A DNA stretch of 63,208 nucleotides, counting the filler, from Diploschistes diacapsis (Eukaryota), in the NCBI GenBank assembly GCA_023645945.1. It is 17 parts of 17 records of this genome, joined end to end, with 100 filler letters (N's around TTAATTAATTAA, not from the genome) between each part and the next. Parts side by side here need not be neighbours in the genome. Positions count along the whole stretch, not along the records: positions 56,161 to 58,444 come from JALAIB010002282.1; 16 more parts are not named here. One strand, given 5' to 3'. The notes beneath the pieces were generated by a model, which did no database searches, had not been told where the DNA came from, and worked only from the letters and a program-made list of their open reading frames with translations. Both the position numbers and the translations under genes were made by a program. Numbering within the stretch: position 1 is the first letter of the stretch; the number at the start of each line of letters is the position of its first letter. This document shows positions 27,463 through 58,981 of this stretch, piece by piece.

Positions 27463-29530
27463 AAGTTATAGAACTCGAAAATTAAGGAAAAAAACGAAGT
27501 ATTATTATGGTTCAACGGGGGTTAGTTATATACGTAATAAATTATAATCGAGAATAAACCGTTTTATTAAATTATTATTATTATCTAATTCGGTTCCGTT
27601 CGTTCGACTTTTTACGTCTTTAATGTTATTTTTTTATTAATAATCACCGCGACGCGCGCGCGGGTATCCCCCGTTATCATAACGGTATACCATTTTTTTA
27701 ATCGATATATATCGTTCTAATATAAATTCCGTTACGATTTTTAAATAATTACAATATCGTAACCTTTCGTCTTTTCGTTTATAAAAAAGGATATTATTAT
27801 TTTATTTTTATTTTTCTATACGTTGTATTAATAGATAATGATGCTTAATATAGATTAATTACTAAAGTTATACTGTTCCCGTTATTCCTTTTTATCTCGC
27901 GTAAATCTTCTAAGTCGCCAACTTAGAAGGACCGGATATCGACCGAATCTTTTACGAATTTCTATAATTATTTCATTATAGATTAATTTTCTCGACGGTA
28001 AACTATTATCGTTATATAATCGGCGCGCGTTCGTTTTTTTTTCGGACCCGTGTTTTTCGTTCTTTTTATATTTTTATCGTTATAATTCCCTATAATAATC
28101 TTTTTTATTATTTTATTGGATTCCGGTTCGATACGCGTCAGATCCGTTAATATTACGGTTCTGGACAGGCTTCCGATTAGGTCCCGGAAGTCGTCCGGGG
28201 ATAAGAAATAAAACGAATTCGATAGAATGATTAAAGCTATAGAAGAAGTCGAGGAAGGGAAGGAATGCGAAAAATAAACGTAGGAATGCGATCTTTTCTC
28301 GTATCTTATATTAACCGTCGGGAAATGCGTCTCGGTTCATTCTTAAAATATTCTCGATTTTATATTATATTCTTTATAAACGCGGTTCGCTGCCGTTTGG
28401 CCTACGAGGCATTATCTTAACCATAACGGGTGATCTTTATAATTATAATTTACGTATTTATAACTTTAAGATTACTCTTTCGTCGGATAAACGTTCGTCT
28501 CGTAAATCATACCCGCGTAAAACCCGTAATACTTCGATCGTCCGTAACGGGCTATTATATATTTAAAATTATAGTAATTAAAACATTACGTAATACGATA
28601 ATTTCCGTAAAATGATTCGTAATTATAGATTTTATTATTTTAAAGAAAACTTTCCGTTATTAATTTATTAATTATTTCCGGCGTTCCGATTACGACGAAT
28701 AATAAATTTATTTTTTTTTCGTTTATTAGGATTCGCTTTTTTTATATTGGTCGGCGTATTATATTTTTTAAATTCGGGTTTATTTTATTAATAACGTATA
28801 CCGCCGCGTTTTATTCCGTAATGTTTACGGAATTTATTCGTATTCTATATATCATTATTATAAATTTTTTTCGTATTACTTTCGTCTCTCGTTCGAATAT
28901 CGTTATCCATTCTTTTATTTTTTTAACTTCGTTTTTTACTTCTTTTTAATCTATTACGAATCTTACGTCCCCGTTAAAAAACCGTCGGGCTATAATAATA
29001 TTCTTTATTCCAACTTTTTTCGCGTCCGTTATTAACTCGGGCCCATTCCGTTACTTTTTCGTTTATATCTTATTTCTTAATTGAATTATAACTTTTTTAA
29101 TCGTTCTTTTTAATACTTCTATTACCTTATTTTTTTTTTCGAGGATGGAATCTATTACTTAGGCCCAACTCTTGTTTTCGGTGTTATTACGGTTACTTTT
29201 CTATTTTTTTATAATTCCCTATATCGCTTTTATATCTTCTTTAATCATATTTAATCTTTCTTTTAATTTTAACGCGTTTTTTTTACGATTAAATTCTAAC
29301 GCGCCGGCGTCGTTTCCGCGTATTATTTCCGTTATTATAATCTAAAATTATATTAATCTTTTATTTTATTCTATTTTCACGTATGTTCCGATTATTTATA
29401 TTACATCTTTTAATCTATCTTTCGCGTTCGAGTTCTTCGTCGGCCCGCATGCGCGATTTTATTAAAAATAAGACGCGTCACGACGCGACTCTCTTCCTCC
29501 TCGTTGCGTCGTTGCCATCTCTCCGTTGTT
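27463..29530 (-). mobile_element. Non-LTR retrotransposon (Tad-like LINE): ORF1 and start of ORF2 AP-endonuclease, RIP-mutated
   Basis: Minus strand near 27830-27730 reads *YNV*K and YDIVII*KS*RN, which revert to QYNVWK and YDIVAIQEPWRN; second copy at 46614-48015. Confidence 0.75.
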
Positions 29531-29863
29531 GTCCTAGGGGCAATTAGTAATATTATCGAACGCTTAACGGTATATCCGGATATGCTGATTTTCTAATGAC
29601 GATATTGAAAGGTCAAATGAATAAGATATAAGAATAACGTTTATCGACAATGGCTTCCGTTAATATATATATATAAAAATTAATGTTACAAAATAAGTAT
29701 CTCGCGCATAAAGATTAAGACGAAATCGATTAATTAAACGTTTGTTTTTTATAGATATAATACNNNNNNNNNNNNNNNNNNNNNNNNNNNNNNNNNNNNN
29801 NNNNNNNTTAATTAATTAANNNNNNNNNNNNNNNNNNNNNNNNNNNNNNNNNNNNNNNNNNNN

Positions 29864-32011
29864 ATGCTAAAGGGAGCGAAACAAAAATACGTTTTTTAAA
29901 ATTATATAACGATGATTTAATATTATATTAGAAATATAATCATAACTGAACTTAAACTGAACGATTCAGTTATAATATTTAAAAAACATTAAACAAAAAA
30001 AAAGCCGTTAATAAACCACTTCCGCGTCTAAAAATCAAGATACTACAACTACGTAAATCTAAAATTATTATTTAAACGGTAAAATAAGCTAATAGATAGA
30101 ACAAGACTTTATATATTAATTAAATATATCGACATCGATAAGTAATATAAGATCTAAATACTAGATCTTTAAAAATTCATTAAAACGAGCTCGGTCAGAT
30201 TTAAAAAAAATAAAACATTTATTTTTTAAGAACTGAAACTTCCCGAAAGCTATAAGGAAAACGATAACGTAATACTTATCCGAAAGCCAGTAAAACGACC
30301 AGCCGTTAACCCAATATATAATATCGAGGGAATAAATATTTCGTTAATAATAAACGACAATAACACGTTAATCACGGACGACAACAAGGCATTAATAATA
30401 TAAAAACAGGGAATTCAGAACGAATATATTAAACTATTTAAACTAACGGTAGATTATAGCATCTTAAAGGCCTATATTTTAAAAGATTAGATAAAAGATA
30501 TTAAACTATTTAAATCGGTTGCAGATCACAGTACCCTAAGGGCCGATACTCCAGTCAAGAAGTTCTTACGAATAAAATTTTTAGAGAAAAATACTGAACC
30601 TGAACTCGAACCTGAACCCGAATTCCACCTTAAACCTAAATCAACTAAAATAAACGTGAATAATGCATCAATAATAATAACTACGTATCAGAATAAAAAG
30701 CTATTTAATACGACCCCTATTACTAATAAACGAGAACGGGACAATAAAGAATACTCGTCGATTAAAACCTTAAAAAGCCATGTCGCGCTAATCGCCAGCG
30801 AGCAGGAAATAATCAGCGACGTTAAATCAAAATTATCTCGAATCAGCATTCTAAAGAACTATAAAGAGGCCATCAATAACTCAATCTTTAAAAAAGAATA
30901 AAAGGAAACAATAAGAAAAGAAATCGATTCTTTATTCTTAAATTAGACCTAGACTGAACTACTTGAACCAAAGAATACCAACATAATAAACTCAAAATAA
31001 ATATTCGACGTGAAATACAATCTTAATAGCGACATTAAGAGGTTCAAGACTAAATTAATCGCAAAAAGGTTCTCGCAATAGAAAAGAATCAATTTTGACG
31101 AGACATTTATTTTTATTATTCGAGCGAACTCTCTACGCATCTTACTAACGATCATCGCAACAAAAGATTTAGAATGTCATCAAATAGACGTTAATAATAC
31201 ATTTACGGAAACGTCGTTGACGCATTAGATCTATATAGCGCCACTTAAAGGATATAACGTCCCTAGGAATACTATCTTAAAGATCAATAAAAGCTTATAC
31301 GGATTAAAATAAGCAGCAAAGAACTGGCATAAAGAATACGGCAATATAATCCTAAACCTAAGATTTAAAAGATGCGACGCCGACCCTTATATTTTCACCC
31401 TATAAAATCAAAAGCTATTAATTAACTTATACGTCGACGACATCATCGTAACAGCACTTAAATTACGAGACGTGAACTGGTTTAAAAAAACCCTCGCTGA
31501 ACGTTACAAGATTAAAAATCTAAAAAAGATTAAAAAGATCCTAAAAATAAGAGTTCAGCGACAACGCTAAGGAATAATTCAGCTGAACTTTAATCAAGAA
31601 GCTTACGCTAAAAAGATGCTCGATCGGTTCAAGATGGCAACGAACACGCATAAAAATCAAAAAATCCCACTTAATAAATATAGCGGTATTAAATAAAACG
31701 ACTCGCCTAAATTAACGGACAGGATTCAGTATCAAGAAATAGTTAATAATATTATATATATAATAGTCTATATTAAACAAAACATTGCCTTCGCAATTAA
31801 AAAACTTAATTAATATATAAGTAATCCCCATCTCCATTATTTATATATATTTAAAAGACTACTCCGTTATATTCGAAAAATTAAAGATACGAAAATTCAA
31901 TTCTTAATTAAATCTGAATCTAAATTTTTGAAGTTACGAAAATATTCTAATATAAATTACAAAAAAGATAAAATAAACCGAAAGTTTACGCATAGACATA
32001 TCTTTTAGTTA
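29864..32011 (+). mobile_element. Ty1/copia pol remnant (RT and start of RNase H), RIP-mutated
   Basis: RFKTKLIAKRFSQ, ECHQIDVNNTF, KINKSLYGLK*AAKNW, LYVDDII. Confidence 0.9.
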
Positions 32012-32162
32012 TGTTTGGCAACGTAATGGATATATTGAAGTCTAGAGGTCTTATCTAGGAGGTTATCCTACTTTGCAGACTTTTATCCTGTGGGATACAT
32101 TAAGCCCTACTGTCTACACTATTCCTTATTCGGTCTAGTTGGAATTCTAGGAAGTTTAGCTG
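32012..32162 (-). mobile_element. Copia LTR (partial) inserted antisense into copia RNase H
   Basis: Near-identical to 50672-50822 (tgtttggcaacgtaatggatatattgaagtctagagg). Confidence 0.85.
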
Positions 32163-46613: not shown

Positions 46614-48015
46614 GTACGCGTTAGATTCGTTGGTATTACGGTTTTGAGCGAACTTCCGGTTAGGTTCCGAAAGCCGTTCGAGAACGGGAAATAAAACAAA
46701 TCCGATGGGATAATTAGGGCTATAAAAGAAGTCGAGGGGGGGAAAGAACGCGAAAGATAGGCGTAAGAATACGATCGTTTTTTATATTTTATATTAATCG
46801 TCGGGAGATGCGTTTCGGTTTATTCTCGGAATATTCTCGGTTTTATATTATATTTCTTACGAGCGCGGTCCGCTATCGTTTGGTTTACGGGATACTATCT
46901 CGATCATAACGGGTGACCTTTATAGTTATAATTTACGCATTTATGATCCTAAGGTTATTTTTTCGTCGGATAAGCGTTCGTCTCGTGAGTCGTGCCCGCG
47001 GAGAACTTATAGTACTTCGGTCGTCCGTAGCGGGCTATTATGTGCCTAAAGCTGTAATAATTAAAACATTACGTAATACGGTAGTTTCCGTAGAATGACT
47101 CGTAGTTATAGATTTTATTATTTTAAAAAAGATTTTTTATTATTAATTTATTAATTATTTCCGGCGTTTCGATTACGATAAATAATAAGTTTATTTTTTT
47201 TCCGTTTATTAAGATTCGTTTTTTTTATATTGTTCGACGTATTATATTTCTTAAATTTAGATTTATTTTATTAATAATATATATTGCTACGTTTTATTTC
47301 GTAATATTTACGAAATTTATCCGTATTTTATGCGTTATTAATTTAAATTCTTTTCGTACTACTTTCGTCCTTCGTTTAAATATCGTTATCTATTCTTTTA
47401 TTTTCTCGATTTCGTTTCTTATTTCTTTTTAATCTATTACGAATCTTACGTCCTTATTAAGGAGCCGTCGGGCTGTAATAATATTCTTTATTTTAATTTT
47501 TTTCGCGTTCGTTATTAGCTCAGGTCCATTCCGTTGCTTTCCCGCTTATATCTTATTTCTTAATCGAATTATGATTTCTTTAATCGTTCTTTTTAATATT
47601 TCCATTATCCTGTTCTTTTTTTCGGAAGTAGAACCTATTATTTAAGTTTAATTCTTATTCCCGGTGTTGTTGCGGTTGTTTCCTTATTTTTCTATAATCT
47701 TTTATATCGCTTTTATATTTTCTTTAATCGTGTTTAATTTTTCTTCTAATTTTAACGCGTTTTTTTTACGATTAGGTTCCGACGCGCCGGCGCCGTTTCC
47801 GCGTATCGTTTCTATTATTATAGTTTAGAATTGTATCAATCTTTCGCTCTGTCTTACTTTCATATATACTCCGATTGCTTATATTGCGTCTTTTAATCTA
47901 TCTTTCGCGTTCGAGCTCCCCGCCGGCCCGCATGCGCGGTCCTGCTAGAAATAAGACGCGTCACGACGCGACTCTCCTCCTCCTCGTTGCGTCGGTGCCA
48001 TCTCTCCGTTATTGC
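46614..48015 (-). mobile_element. Second copy of LINE ORF1 region
   Basis: Colinear with 28130-29530; differences are mostly C/T and G/A transitions. Confidence 0.85.
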
Positions 48016-48018
48016 CGT

Positions 48019-48307
48019 ATCGATAGGTTTATTAATTTCGTGGGTTTCGAATCTATAGTATATCTTTTGGTCATATAATCTTTAACGAATACGAAGATTT
48101 CCATTCGATTATATTTTAGCATAAAGTTTAGTTTAATTGAACCTCCGAGGTTTAGTTTAGTTGAAATTCCTAGGTTCTGATTAGAACGATTCGGGAGTAG
48201 TAGATAATAAGGTTTCGCGGATCCCGTAGGGTATAAAAGTCTGCGCAGTAGGATATCTTCATAGATTAGACCTCTAGACTTCAATATATCCATTACGTTG
48301 CCAAACA
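48019..48307 (+). mobile_element. Copia LTR variant (start approximate)
   Basis: Ends gacctctagacttcaatatatccattacgttgccaaaca, reverse complement of the 32012 and 50672 termini. Confidence 0.7.
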
Positions 48308-49405
48308 TTAGATTTAGTATCTTCGTTGTCGTGAATTTTAATAAGTTCTAACGATCCGTGTAAATTCAGTTTTCTTTATCTCCTGTACCTAAATGTAACA
48401 GCGGGGGTAGTGCCTAATAGGTAGCAATATCCCACTGAGCCAAAATATTAACCACAATGCTTCAATAACCTCGAAACACTGTTTCCCTATTATGTAACGA
48501 ATGACAAACACCGACGTTTGAAAAGTAATCAAGGAGTGGTTAACTCGTCGTTTACGTGGACTCGTTATTGACTCGTCGTTAACACGGCACGATTGAATGG
48601 GTTATTATAGAAATTAAAATATATAAGTCACCGTACTATTTAATTGCTGAAATAGCCCGTAATTCGATTTCTCTTTTTTATAATAACTTTATTTAATAAA
48701 GGTGTAATCTTAGGCGGGTATTATTATTATATATATGTGGTTTTAATCGTTCGTTATATTGAAATTATTATTAACTCACTTTTTAAACTCAAAAATATTA
48801 AAAATATTTAACTTAATAAACTAAACTAGACGGAAAGATTTTTAAAACATGTTTAAAAACAAAAAATAAACCTAATCTAAATTAAAGTAAACATTATCAC
48901 NNNNNNNNNNNNNNNNNNNNNNNNNNNNNNNNNNNNNNNNNNNNTTAATTAATTAANNNNNNNNNNNNNNNNNNNNNNNNNNNNNNNNNNNNNNNNNNNN
49001 TACCTACTACAGCAAGGGAAGTCTCCCTAGACAGCGCGCCTTGTGTTTATAATAGATACGACTCGATTTATATAAATACGCGGTCACGTATAAAACCCGT
49101 AATATAAACGATTTTTCCGTTTTTAACGCTATTAATACGAAAATCTTAATAAAAATTTAAAGCGAGTTATAAGAACCATTATTTAAATTTCTTACGGTTT
49201 CCGTTATATTTATTAGATTTCTAAATTTTTACCTTAAGAACGCTTTCACCGGCTTTATCGTTATTTCCGAGATTGTTTTTTTTGACTTTCGCAGTGTTCG
49301 TTATAACTATATCGGATTTTAGTGTTTTTTAAAATAATACGGACCTAATTTTTAACGATCGCTCGGTCGTGCTTTTTATTATACTTATTTTAAAAAATGT
49401 TTAAA

Positions 49406-56160: not shown

Positions 56161-58170
56161 CCTTTATAATAAGCCATTATATTCTATATAGAATGTTTTA
56201 TTATTTCTAATATCTTAATATTAGTACGTTCGTGACTTATAAACGCGATCGTGTTCAGATATCCTTCGTAATTTAACAAATAACTTTCCTAATCGCAAGA
56301 ACGGGGGCTATTCTCGAAAGCAGCACTGCCGATATTAGAGATTTAAATCAAACCCCGATCTATCGGGACTATAAGCTTAAGCTCCTAAAACCCCTAAATG
56401 ACGAATTATTCCTCGTCCTCGAAGTTATTTTTATGTACGATAAAGATAAGCGAAAACGGTTTTAGTTTAAAACGTTTATATTATACGAAAATAGAATATA
56501 TTTAATTATATATTTTATTATTATGTTTTACTTTCTCGCGTTTATCGATAACGTTTTTCATCCGGTTTTAATAACATAAGATTTTTATTTTACGAAGATG
56601 CATAACTTTAAAACCCTCGACGATAAGATTAACATCGAATTTAAATTTAGAAAAGATATCCTTAATATTTCTATTTATAAAACATTCGAGAGAATTTTTA
56701 CCGGTATTTATACGTATCCGATTAAAACGATATCGGTGATATCTTATTACCGTATCATGAAACGTCTCGGGCAGTTATTTGACTTACTTTATCCTTTTAG
56801 GTTATATTGTTTTCGTCGAGAGGATGGAACTGAGCTTATAGGTTAGTGATTTATATCTTTATTAAGAACTTCCTTAACTTTTAAAGCTAGATCGCGGAAT
56901 TAATAATACTTAACGTAATTAGATTATAAGTTATAAGAAAGCGATAACGTTCTAAAAATGATATTTCTTATCCAGAATTATTATCGATACGCAAACAATA
57001 TTTTTAAGGTAAGAACCTATATCTAACCTTATTAAAGAGATAAGGAAAATGGCCTTGCGCTGCGACCTTAATTTTTCAAAAGGACTAACCGAGGCTTAGA
57101 AAAAGGAAGCCCATTTAACCGAGGATCTAGTCTAGATCTAAATTGAATGTAACGAATTAAGATGTTAATTCAAGTATAAGTATCAGTATATTAACCAAGT
57201 TCCGGAAGATTGTATAAAATTTAAAAAATATCGGGAATTAAATCAAAAAATTAAGATATTAAAACTGCGATATAAACGGAAAGCTTTTGACGGTGTATTT
57301 AACGACTTTCATTCTAATACCGATCTTAAATCTATGATTATATAATTTAAAGGCGAATTATTTATAATTATAATTAATTTATCTCCCGTACAGCATAATA
57401 TACCACAACGAAATAAATTAGTAAGAAGTTTTTTTAAGCTTATTAAAGACGACAATATTTGGAATCGGATTATTATAATTATGAGCGAGCTGTGTCTTTT
57501 TGTCGAAGAAAGGTTTCGTTAATCTATTTTTTTTATAATTAACTGTTTATTGGATGCCGCAATTTACGTTAATATACTCGTATTAGATACGACTTCTTAA
57601 ACTACGGAATTTCTATTACACGTAAACGTAATATCGAGACCCGCGATTAAATCGTAGTTACGCGATTCTATCCTTTTCTCGACTTATCACTCGATTTCTA
57701 TTAATATATTTATATTAAATATCTCGTTAATAGTAAAACTTCTTTTATATTAATATAAGCTTCTGAAAAAGCGTTTAATAAAATTTATCGAATTTATATT
57801 AAAACGCGTTACGAAATAATATTTATAAAATCCCGTAGATTCTTTAGCCCGACAACGAAAACCTATATTACAGAAATTTCCTCAAGGTTTACCGACTGAT
57901 CCGAAATTACGAGACCCTTGTCGCCGTCTGTATATCTATTTATTCTACGTCGAAAGTAGAGTCAAAAGTTATTTCATTTATACCTACGGTCTTCGACGGC
58001 ATTACCGCATAAAGTATTTTGCTTACTAGACAGGTTCCTTCTATTATTTTATTTTTAATTGTAACATGTTGATCCAGGATCCGGATCGTTTCGCTGGTTA
58101 TATAATTAATAATTATAGAACGGTCGTTAAAGTACGGGTATTAATCATAAATAGATCGACGAGGTAAGTT
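56161..58170 (+). pseudogene. DUF3435 tyrosine-recombinase gene (Starship captain-like), RIP-mutated
   Basis: KRDRVQI..ARTGAILES..YRDYKL..LVLEV..LAFIDNVF..LYCFRR, intron ~56841-56890, RN*IISY (reverts to RNWIMGH), C-terminal GLRRHYR zinc-finger-like segment. Confidence 0.75.
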
Positions 58171-58981
58171 AAACCCGGTCAATTTACTACCTTTACTTTC
58201 TAGATCCTTTTGTACAGGTTAATGTAGCTTAAGTTAACCTAACTTCGATTATTTTTATCTATATATCCTATAAATCCTTTGCTGCGATCAAACGTTTGTA
58301 ATAGAATCTTATATCTGTTTGTTTCGAAGCTCGGGATCTTTTTTTAATCGATTCTTAATTATCTAATATAAATCTTCGCGTTTAGGTTGTAAGCGTATAT
58401 TAATTGGAGATATTTTAAGACCGATTTCAGCTTCTGTTATAAATNNNNNNNNNNNNNNNNNNNNNNNNNNNNNNNNNNNNNNNNNNNNTTAATTAATTAA
58501 NNNNNNNNNNNNNNNNNNNNNNNNNNNNNNNNNNNNNNNNNNNNGTGGAGGGGAGGAGCAGTGATGAGATTACGCCGGTGCTGGTGGGGGAGGTGGAGAG
58601 GAGGTTTTGCTAGGGGGTGAAGAAGATGTTTGGGACGAAGGGGGACTTGGTCGTGCTAGGCAGCATCGCAGCAATGGCGGAAGCAATGGCGGAAGATTTC
58701 GATACATGAATTCAAATAGGGGCGAAAAACCTGGGGAGGCCCCTGTTCATGTAGCATTCGATATTCCATCACCCTTGGAGAAATATCGGGTTACACGTTA
58801 CGCTATATCAGCTTAGCCTATACTTCTGTACGGAACATAACATACAGCGCTCAATGCGCAAAGCGCTTAAACCGCAGCGCATAGACGCCACAGGATGCAC
58901 ATCATATATGTCCATCTATAACATACTCCACAACGCAAGAGTCTCAAGGACCAACAAAATCCCAAGAAATAGCGAACGCCT

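Follow-up and report, generated by a model that had tools for sequence, protein, structure and literature searches.

A RIP-degraded, 5′-truncated DUF3435 recombinase gene of probable Starship-captain type in the lecanoromycete Diploschistes diacapsis

The window, by which we mean the whole 63,208-nucleotide stretch of Diploschistes diacapsis DNA that was analyzed, consists of 17 contigs concatenated via N/TTAATTAATTAA spacers. One of these, a contig of 2284 bp at positions 56161-58444 with a GC content of 0.30, carries the remnant of a recombinase gene on the plus strand. The plus frame from 56163 reads YKRDRVQISFVI*QITFLIARTGAILESS...FLAFIDNVFHP...YPFRLYCFRREDG, and the plus frame from 56161 reads RN*IISY, then GLRRHYR...DRF; all peptide strings quoted in a preliminary description of the locus are found in these two frames. 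That description had assigned them to a DUF3435 tyrosine recombinase. We scanned the translated frames against Pfam with stops taken as X and no reversion. DUF3435 (PF11917; cut-off 25.8 bits) matched frame 1 at amino acids 24-224 (profile positions 19-207 of 418, 31.0 bits, E = 1.7e-7) and frame 2 at amino acids 245-430 (profile positions 210-398 of 418, 36.6 bits, E = 3.3e-9), and the assignment thus holds, with each exon of the mutated gene exceeding the gathering cut-off as it stands. The remaining plus frame was without a Pfam match, and the three minus frames gave a single sub-threshold match, to an unrelated family. Stop codons were depleted in precisely the two DUF3435 frames, over the matching stretches.

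The two DUF3435 frames are connected by an intron at 56842-56890, on the plus strand (49 nt, GTTAGT...TAG, phase 1). With this GT-AG intron taken out, the translation is colinear without gaps with the intact relatives P0038 and P0003, and profile position 207 is joined to 210. Relatives show a frame break at the same profile position, ~207-208. The intron that had been proposed between the frames is therefore borne out. Upstream of it lies the exon-1 remnant (56161-56841, plus strand; profile 19-207), whose 5′ end is cut by the contig start; roughly the first 120-145 codons are missing. The exon-2 remnant (56891-58203, plus strand; profile 210-398) contains the remainder of the DUF3435 domain, which runs to ~57450 and is followed by a variable linker, and a C2H2-like finger pair at ~57937-58116. 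Reading continues past the finger pair to a natural stop, TAG, at 58201-58203, which moves the end of the coding remnant from the 58170 given earlier. The gene contains 22 premature stops, 4 in exon 1 and 18 in exon 2; with these and the missing 5′ part, there is no open reading frame able to yield protein. Beyond the natural stop is an AT-rich, RIP-type 3′ flank (58204-58444, GC 0.29). This flank still belongs to the repeated unit, as a diverged contig from metagenome run X1 (see below) extends to at least 58345. The 2284-bp contig holds the gene alone, and neither an element end, nor a direct or inverted terminal repeat, nor cargo was found on it, in agreement with the earlier remark that cargo and boundaries are not visible on a contig of 2.3 kb. 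Searches of the rest of the window by blastn and tblastn revealed no further copy of the recombinase gene, no other DUF3435 sequence, and none of the cargo found in relatives.

We assigned catalytic positions through an alignment of P0038 to XerA, which is weak across the R...LGH region (E = 0.011). By this assignment, the first catalytic Arg (AGA, 56298-56300), the Arg of a ‘YCFRRE’ box (56814-56816), and the presumed nucleophile Tyr (56962-56964) are retained, all on the plus strand. The pentad named for tyrosine recombinases is R-K-H-R-Y (PMC10104507), to which a second His is added as a catalytic residue; the Lys could be placed only with low confidence. The His of the LGH motif is now Tyr (TAT, 56932-56934): the string RN*IISY noticed earlier is present, but it is a mutated form of ..RNQILGH rather than a sequence in its own right. 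Even intact members of the clade have Tyr, not His, where the ‘HxxR’ box begins. For the C2H2-like pair, the Cys and His columns are invariant in 12 relatives, and amino acids 594-654 of P0038 match a GLI zinc finger (E = 5e-4); mapping of the ligands onto the window gene revealed that 6 of the 8 are now Tyr.

Comparison of the frame at 56893-58167 with 1.84 billion representative proteins yielded P0001 (438 amino acids), its nearest intact protein, at E = 3.9e-116, with 50% identity over 412 residues (query positions 13-424). At E ≤ 1e-3, the exon-2 frame had 37 matches, and PF11917 was present in 18 of the 21 that were scanned. P0025, a full-length relative, also passes the Pfam Phage_integrase model (29.2 bits; cut-off 27.1). 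Exon 1 matched amino acids 146-347 of P0038 with 31% identity (BLASTP, E = 2e-30). When longer relatives of exon 1 were sought by a word-based method, none of the 477 candidates reached E ≤ 1e-3, which is weak evidence. In a tree, the window gene paired with P0001 (SH-aLRT 100), this pair grouped with one of two lineages of relatives described below (lineage 2, SH-aLRT 86), and the resulting clade grouped with the other (lineage 1, SH-aLRT 86). The window gene is thereby placed between two lineages that head insertions. The branches bracketing it are moderately supported, as 86 is under the 95 mark, and the tree was made by quick search only, with a compositionally deviant row for the window gene. 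As to the host, the window also includes a 25-kb contig with a TCP-1 theta gene that shares 90% identity with its counterpart in Thelotrema lepadinum, and every named match among the 120 listed was from Lecanoromycetes.

RIP in the gene, which the preliminary description had read from the sequence, is well supported. The contig has a TpA/ApT ratio of 1.10 and a (CpA+TpG)/(ApC+GpT) ratio of 0.50, compared with 0.66-0.83 and 1.19-1.35 for six GC-normal contigs of the window; the usual thresholds for RIP are ~0.89 and ~1.03. Among the 211 mismatches to P0001, 157 were explainable by C>T or G>A changes alone, while the reverse direction alone could explain 16. Across 1000 shuffles, the C>T/G>A count was 43.3 ± 5.6 and never exceeded 61. 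The stops tell the same story, as 14 of the 16 that align to P0001 fall on its Q, W, or R codons. When RIP-type changes are discounted, the residual divergence from P0001 is about 13%. Of the remaining C contexts in the contig, CpG was kept (121 sites), and CpA (47) and TpG (54) were depleted.

Further copies of the gene were detected in run X1, a lichen metagenome that is probably the source sample. Ten X1 contigs match the stretch, four at ≥99% identity and six at <90%, and together they cover 56236-58345, which includes the gene and part of its 3′ flank. The diverged copies are 84-88% alike. Their differences comprise 211 transitions (48 A>G, 68 C>T, 40 G>A, and 55 T>C) versus 11 transversions, and 39 of the 40 best-supported sites that differ between copies are transitions. 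At C/T sites, the next base was A in 11 cases, T in 11, C in 2, and G in none; at G/A sites, the preceding base was T in 9, A in 4, and G and C in 1 each. These six diverged contigs, which differ almost only by transitions, support the earlier suggestion that there were copies enough to trigger RIP. However, since X1 is probably the metagenome of the source lichen, the extra copies could sit in another thallus genome, and X1 is therefore not independent support. None of the X1 contigs extends beyond the ends of the window contig. The bin 58394-58444 was without coverage in X1, and two other runs from the study, X2 and X3, contained no contigs matching the stretch, neither of which implies absence.

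Intact relatives were detected in metagenome contigs, with 20 loci in all. In one lineage, the homology of eight loci starts at the same nucleotide (CGCGTAGT...), and the eight have 7 unrelated upstream flanks. In a second lineage, five loci share a start (CGCGTAAT/GT...) and have 4 different flanks. The 5′ terminus of the intact relatives is conserved and nucleotide-sharp (CGCGTA[AG]T), and 24-39 nt inside it lies a 5-bp inverted repeat with a variable 6-nt spacer (TTACC-N6-GGTAA), an arrangement similar to the core site of a recombinase. The first gene encountered is that of the recombinase, located 738 or 955 nt inside the sharp 5′ end and pointing inward. Downstream, relatives carry either a SIR2 gene and an AAA_11/12 helicase gene or a chromo-domain ORF and a ferric-reductase FAD_binding_8 ORF, and a DUF3723 fragment lies upstream of the relative at locus L002. 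DUF3723, ferric reductase, patatin-like, and NLR genes are companions of Starship captains. One lineage measures ~10.7-12.6 kb, which is below the size of published Starships, and another, which includes the ferric-reductase ORF, is at least 13.1 kb. As homology among three copies fades over ~30 nt, the 3′ ends are located only roughly. Terminal inverted repeats and target duplications were looked for in the relatives, with only an 8-nt near-match (ATTACGCG), which is inside the element, as the outcome, and no empty site for their insertions was found. For one of the contigs that carry these relatives, the flanking sequence is lecanoromycete. The captain-positioned relatives are just 34-43% identical to P0001.

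The gene at 56161-58203 is almost certainly a DUF3435 recombinase pseudogene destroyed by RIP. Taken as a whole, the remnant is quite probably a dead, 5′-truncated recombinase gene of Starship-captain type, with a DUF3435 domain, a conserved intron, and a C2H2-like pair, from a lecanoromycete in which copies were hit by RIP. From the position of its relatives, we infer that this copy formerly stood at the head of a mobile element with cargo, and there is a good chance that it was the captain of an element of Starship type. If it behaved as other members of the family do, the intact protein would have bound the ends of its own element, cut and rejoined DNA through a covalent tyrosine intermediate, and moved the element with its cargo by excision and insertion elsewhere. 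The element probably reached two or more copies in this genome. RIP then acted on them in the course of sexual cycles, so that C became T and G became A in CpA and CpT contexts, with CpG spared. The outcome was the 22 stops, the replacement of the conserved catalytic-site His by Tyr, and the conversion of 6 of the 8 zinc ligands to Tyr.

We considered other explanations for the locus. The most serious is that the gene came from a tyrosine-recombinase transposon that was small and multi-copy, Crypton-like or otherwise compact and recombinase-led, and that RIP hit as an ordinary repeat, rather than from a giant Starship with cargo. We regard this as unlikely, although several observations are in its favor. 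One sample contains at least two copies, and probably three or more, which is atypical for Starships as these are described in the literature, namely as low-copy. The best-delimited relatives measure only ~10.7-12.6 kb, DUF3435 repeats were earlier labeled Cryptons by repeat annotators (PMC9156397), and a 17.9-kb recombinase-only candidate was deemed a likely false positive in the Tangerine paper (PMC13486527). Repeats of an ordinary kind are also present in the window: it has 10 other AT-rich contigs, and Pfam scans of six chosen frames from these revealed retrotransposon domains in two, as expected for wrecks of LTR retrotransposons, and nothing at E ≤ 1e-3 in the other four. Against a Crypton-like origin, PF11917 is matched above its cut-off, and in published trees all DUF3435 captains fall into one clade, equally distant from the recombinases of bacteria and from fungal Cryptons (PMC9156397). 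Moreover, the relatives bear further genes downstream of the recombinase, and the lineage with the ferric-reductase ORF reaches at least 13.1 kb.

It is still less probable, indeed very unlikely, that the gene was a resident, non-mobile DUF3435 paralogue, solo or domesticated, that was mutated by RIP leaking from neighboring repeats rather than through its own duplication. Captain-like recombinases of lichen fungi do often occur without a recognizable element, with 16 reported in Xanthoria (PMC13486527) and 1-14 per Peltigera genome (bioRxiv 10.64898/2026.06.16.732702). Since the entire contig is AT-rich, the surroundings of the gene are RIP-affected too. However, the diverged copies over 56236-58345, with transitions in both directions, have the pattern of independently mutated duplicates, and the relatives have clearly inserted at numerous distinct sites. 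That the locus contains no gene, and that its likeness to a recombinase arose by chance from AT-rich, low-complexity sequence, has practically nothing to recommend it. AT-rich DNA does yield many pseudo-peptides rich in Ile, Asn, Lys, Phe, and Tyr, and of the six frames of this contig, four had no credible Pfam match. Chance would nevertheless have had to produce the match to P0001 (E = 3.9e-116 in a set of 1.84 billion proteins, 50% identical across 412 residues) and two colinear Pfam matches connected through a GT-AG intron at the position of the frame break in relatives. The Pfam matches, the P0001 match, and the test of mutation direction refute this explanation.

A captain-type recombinase fits what has been described for Starships. 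Captains belong to the DUF3435 recombinases and sit at the element's 5′ end (PMC9156397, PMC11162782), and transposition of Hephaestus requires its captain, HhpA (PMC10104507). Judged by published descriptions, the window gene shares its Pfam family, PF11917, with HhpA and with Kirc, the captain of Enterprise. It has the same layout of conserved residues, Arg ... Y/HxxR ... LGH ... Tyr, as far as the weak XerA-based assignment goes, and its relatives are likewise the first gene at the 5′ end, pointing inward. The Enterprise captain is described as having an extra zinc-finger domain (PMC11162782), to which the C-terminal C2H2-like pair would correspond. The window copy differs from these captains in that it is a pseudogene with 22 stops, a missing 5′ end, and no visible element ends or cargo. 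It also differs from fungal Cryptons. These too are eukaryotic tyrosine-recombinase elements of a few kb that can be multi-copy, but in the published phylogeny their recombinases stand apart from the DUF3435 clade (PMC9156397), while the window gene is a PF11917 match with cargo-bearing relatives.

The nearest published comparisons are in lichens. A survey of 554 lichen-associated genomes reported 1,508 captain-type recombinases (PMC13486527). The published captain alignment comprises 1,222 + 494 representative recombinases, with two Cryptons as outgroups in that survey, and the named captain families include Tangerine, Phoenix, Galactica, and Prometheus. The captain-like recombinases described there and in Peltigera (bioRxiv 10.64898/2026.06.16.732702) share with the window gene their occurrence in Lecanoromycetes, the gene family, and a setting of RIP-affected repeats, and most are likewise without a delimited element. 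The searched text of these two papers contains no mention of zinc fingers. Tangerine is described from one locus only, while relatives of the window gene occupy 7 and 4 different sites, and the Tangerine family is marked by its own clade in the captain tree and by a short or absent core-binding domain (PMC13486527). The Peltigera elements are reported without a captain at the 5′ end (bioRxiv 10.64898/2026.06.16.732702). Duplicates inactivated by C-to-T and G-to-A changes also have precedents, in the form of duplicated Hephaestus, which was destroyed by RIP after a cross (PMC10104507), and what may be a degraded Tangerine copy in Xanthoria calcicola (PMC13486527). Compared with these derelict Starships, the window shows only a 2.3-kb fragment, and its mutation is heavy (GC 0.30) rather than that of fresh, single-cross RIP.

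By itself, the locus is of little weight, as it is another copy of a captain-type recombinase that RIP has destroyed. Published accounts (2026) already cover captain-like recombinases in lichen fungi and the degradation of their Starships by RIP; the supplement of the Tangerine paper (PMC13486527) may well already contain this very lineage. What the locus contributes is a clean, quantified case of RIP acting on duplicated captain genes in a lecanoromycete. The relatives, whose sharp element ends occur at many sites, provide a concrete handle on Starship-type movement in lichen fungi, where active movement was left open by both studies (PMC13486527; bioRxiv 10.64898/2026.06.16.732702).

A broader model, which we offer tentatively, is that the pseudogene derives from a lecanoromycete lineage of recombinases with a C-terminal C2H2 pair, the intact members of which head compact, multi-copy elements (~11 to >13 kb) that are culled by RIP. 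If this model is correct, the insertions at 7 and 4 distinct sites would give the first direct indication that Starship-type elements have transposed repeatedly in lichen-forming fungi. RIP would then cull such elements to different extents, lightly at locus L006 and heavily in the window. In the lightly mutated pair of relatives L004 and L006, 64 of 66 C>T differences were at CpA.

Translation of the pseudogene contig with stops read as X, and without reversion of any mutation, gave matches to DUF3435 (PF11917; cut-off 25.8 bits, profile length 418) in two plus-strand frames. Amino acids 24-224 of the frame from 56163 matched profile positions 19-207 (31.0 bits), and amino acids 245-430 of the frame from 56161 matched positions 210-398 (36.6 bits). 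The family assignment made in the preliminary description therefore stands, and all the peptides it quoted are present in these frames. The third plus-strand frame had no Pfam match, the three minus-strand frames gave one sub-threshold match only, to an unrelated family, and stop codons were depleted in precisely the two PF11917 frames, over the matching stretches alone. A 49-nt phase 1 intron (GTTAGT...TAG; plus strand, 56842-56890) joins the two parts. With it removed, '...YCFRREDGTELI-D-RGINNT*RN*IISY...' aligns without gaps to '...YCLRRDIATSLADSGTSQPQLLQILGH...' of an intact relative, and the frames of relatives break at the same profile position.

The second frame extends far past the Pfam domain. 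With 56893-58167 as query, HMMER returned 37 matches at E<=1e-3 among 1.84 billion representatives; PF11917 was present in 18 of the 21 scanned. The best match, P0001 (438 aa; E 3.9e-116, 50% identity, query 13-424), ends in KPGQLATFTL, which aligns to KPGQFTTFTF* in the window. Since the alignment runs through the last residues of P0001, the coding remnant ends at a natural stop at 58201-58203, not at 58170 as previously placed. Exon 1 aligns to residues 146-347 of the full-length relative P0038 (711 aa; E 2e-30); thus, roughly 120-145 initial codons were lost to the contig start.

The window's copy is dead, its frame interrupted by 22 premature stops (4 in the first frame and 18 in the second). 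Over 424 aligned positions it is identical to P0001 at 213 and mismatched at 211. C>T or G>A changes alone, starting from a codon of the P0001 residue, can produce 157 of the 211 mismatches, while the reverse changes explain only 16; when residues were shuffled among the mismatched sites 1000 times, the count was 43.3 +/- 5.6 (maximum 61). Fourteen of 16 aligned stops fall on Q, W or R of P0001, and identity to P0001 is ~87% once RIP-type changes are discounted. Because the contig has kept CpG (121) and lost CpA (47) and TpG (54), its dinucleotides argue against CpG deamination and for RIP. The stops, the directed mismatches and the CpA/TpG loss all uphold the inactivation by RIP proposed earlier. 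The term 'derelict', as it appears in excerpts of the starfish paper (PMC11162782), fits this copy.

A C-terminal 'GLRRHYR..C..DRF' segment, reported in the preliminary description, is present on the plus strand and is now read as the remains of paired C2H2-like fingers. The columns CLFC...LRRHY..H and CP...C...F..HA...H are invariant in 12 relatives, and the finger region of P0038 matches a GLI five-finger protein (E 5e-4). Six of the eight zinc-ligand positions in the window are now Tyr (TGY->TAY, CAY->TAY). Active-site residues were assigned through a weak XerA alignment (E 0.011) and a Pfam Phage_integrase match (29.2 bits) in P0025, another database relative. By this assignment, three residues survive in the window's copy: the first Arg at 56298-56300, the box Arg at 56814-56816 and, at 56962-56964, the Tyr presumed to be the nucleophile. 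The LGH His has become Tyr (56932-56934). From what is known of the family, the intact protein would bind the ends of its element, cut and rejoin DNA via a covalent phosphotyrosine intermediate, and excise and then reinsert the whole element; the fingers would probably contribute DNA binding. According to excerpts of PMC10104507, experiments with a frameshift and its complementation showed that transposition requires the captain HhpA.

In seven of 21 database proteins (P0001, P0002, P0006, P0008, P0011, P0012 and P0015), the sequence opens with 'MGH', which corresponds to position 223 of the Pfam profile, just past the conserved intron; exon 1 and the initial catalytic residues are thus missing from them. 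To judge from these sequences, gene callers seem to have overlooked exon 1, and some of the 'short captains' that catalogues list may be artefacts of annotation.

Neither blastn nor tblastn found a second copy of the pseudogene inside the window. We aligned contigs of X1, the sole public run matching the stretch, at 80% likeness; X1 is a metagenome, probably the window's own source sample, from whose contigs copy number is not readable. Ten contigs, jointly covering 56236-58345, aligned: four at >=99% identity, representing the window's own copy, and six at <90% (84-88%). Differences were nearly all transitions (A>G 48, C>T 68, G>A 40, T>C 55, versus 11 transversions), and such two-way transitions between copies are the pattern of independently mutated duplicates, in agreement with the earlier claim of multiple copies. 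Of the 39 transition sites with the best support, those of C/T type were followed by A (11), T (11) or C (2), never G. Two diverged contigs overlap each other at 57754-57978, and there may thus be two or more further copies.

Because the window joins 17 separate contigs, with N/TTAATTAATTAA spacers between them and in descending size order except for one 25-kb contig, its adjacent pieces are not neighbours in the genome. Eleven contigs, the pseudogene contig and ten like it, are AT-rich in the manner of RIP and ~2.3 kb each. The pseudogene contig (56161-58444; 2284 bp, GC 0.298) has a TpA/ApT of 1.10, a (CpA+TpG)/(ApC+GpT) of 0.50 and a composite index of 0.60; in the six GC-normal contigs, the 25-kb one included, the two ratios are 0.66-0.83 and 1.19-1.35. 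On the 25-kb contig, the TCP-1 theta gene shares 90% identity with its Thelotrema lepadinum counterpart, and the named proteins among the 120 matches listed are all from Lecanoromycetes. Together with the lichen metagenome label of X1, these relatives identify the host as a lichen-forming lecanoromycete.

With stops read as X, Pfam also detected remains of RIP-degraded LTR retrotransposons: a Ty1/copia-type RVT_2 (144.7 bits) at 29864-32162 on the plus strand and a Ty3-type integrase SH3 domain resembling that of Tf2-1 (32.4 bits) at 1-2303 on the minus strand. The four other frames of AT-rich contigs scanned with Pfam had no match at E<=1e-3. Pieces 27463-29763 and 46614-48900, and further AT-rich pieces, are mutually diverged copies, with matches such as 81.8% across 1400 nt, 82.6% across 461 nt and 92.8% across 152 nt; thus, the genome holds several RIP-affected repeat families. 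Within the window, we found no relation between these families and the DUF3435 contig.

The 2284-bp pseudogene contig lacks the gene's 5' end, an element boundary and cargo. Scanning metagenome contigs with a 12-relative alignment yielded 20 loci, 34-43% identical to P0001. Among the eight loci of lineage 1 (element starts at L002:8142, L015:8143, L011:8160, L005:4385, L010:1478, L004:122, L006:178 and L003:1), mutual homology begins at one nucleotide, CGCGTAGTCTGTGTGCAGGTGAATTAC. The upstream flanks of seven are unrelated, and the L003 contig ends exactly at the element start. In lineage 2 (L007:271, the same as L009; L008:1099; L012:7898; L020:7927), homology begins at CGCGTA[AG]T... next to four different flanks. 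The CGCGTA[AG]T terminus is conserved and nucleotide-sharp in both lineages of these intact relatives from lecanoromycete contigs, at 7 and 4 sites, which suggests recently mobile captain-led elements. Upstream lie ordinary genes in L015 (IPP transferase, GET4, aspartyl protease) and a kinesin gene in L011, whose named relatives are all Lecanoromycetes. Two groups of differently flanked copies, L004 with L006 and L008 with L012 and L020, each have a common accession prefix and probably each come from one assembly. Recombinase homology is oriented inward and begins 738 nt from the element end in L002 and 955 nt from it in L007, with no intervening ORF >=130 aa in either.

Just inside the 5' terminus, columns 24-39 of alignment A3 (e.g. 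L002:8165-8180) hold a 5-bp inverted repeat with a variable 6-nt spacer. Each lineage has its own version, TTACC-N6-GGTAA or TTCCC-N6-GGGAA. Pairing is 98.3%, but the one compensatory change is an event that happened once, between the lineages; on this thin evidence, the repeat might act as a recombinase core site or form a hairpin.

We placed the window's gene in a tree of 37 rows, together with 16 distinct loci (four duplicates dropped) and 20 proteins, those of the 39 that reach 270 aa. In this quick search, with SH-aLRT only and rooted on Teloschistes proteins, the window's gene and P0001 (100) grouped with lineage 2 (86), and that clade with lineage 1 (86). Genes in captain position thus bracket the window's gene, with moderate support.

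In the excerpts available, captains are DUF3435 recombinases at the Starship 5' end, in a clade separate from Cryptons (PMC9156397, PMC11162782), and RIP of duplicated Starships is shown experimentally (PMC10104507). A survey of 554 lichen-associated genomes lists, in the parts accessible, 1,508 such recombinases, the new Tangerine family, RIP-affected lichen repeats and a putative RIP-degraded copy (PMC13486527); Peltigera is reported to carry 1-14 captain-like genes per genome (bioRxiv 10.64898/2026.06.16.732702, in part). Since lichen captains and Starship RIP are already published, the window's gene adds a member to a known class. As excerpted, however, Tangerine was found at a single locus (PMC13486527), whereas relatives of the window's gene have conserved 5' termini at several; Peltigera elements are described without a captain at the 5' end (bioRxiv 10.64898/2026.06.16.732702, in part). 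The possible novelty lies in the relatives of the window's gene: their 5' termini are sharp and conserved across 7 and 4 different sites, and the inverted repeat lies at nt 24-39.

RIP was also evident between two lineage 1 relatives. L004:122-3152 and L006:178-3208 differ by 143 substitutions, of which 123 are C>T (66) or G>A (57) in L006; 64 of the 66 lie at CpA and 52 of the 57 at TpG. The recombinase of L006 has 7 stops, so that L006 parallels the window's copy at a lighter degree of RIP, and the pair is a fresh case of RIP acting between copies.

Downstream of the recombinase, lineage 1 carries a SIR2-family ORF, joined in L015 by an AAA_11/12 helicase. In lineage 2 two ORFs follow within 5 kb, one with a chromo domain and the other with FAD_binding_8 (ferric reductase). 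Lineage 2 copies are alike over >=13.1 kb and likeness in lineage 1 fades at ~10.7-12.6 kb; we found neither a fixed 3' end nor an empty site for these elements. Directly downstream of the intact L011 recombinase, at least 10 kb (L011:11000-21107) has a GC content of 23-31%, mostly 23-27%, and looks like a large RIP-affected region behind a captain. About 5.5 kb upstream of the L002 element end, L002:2276-2836 holds a TPR_12/TPR_10 ORF and a short match (27.1 bits) to DUF3723, a typical Starship companion gene, so this element may adjoin or sit within another Starship-like region. At L013:9697-11358, BLAST against L014 gave a ladder of matches at ~126-nt offsets, pointing to a tandem array of ~126-nt period 1.4 kb downstream of a truncated recombinase relative.
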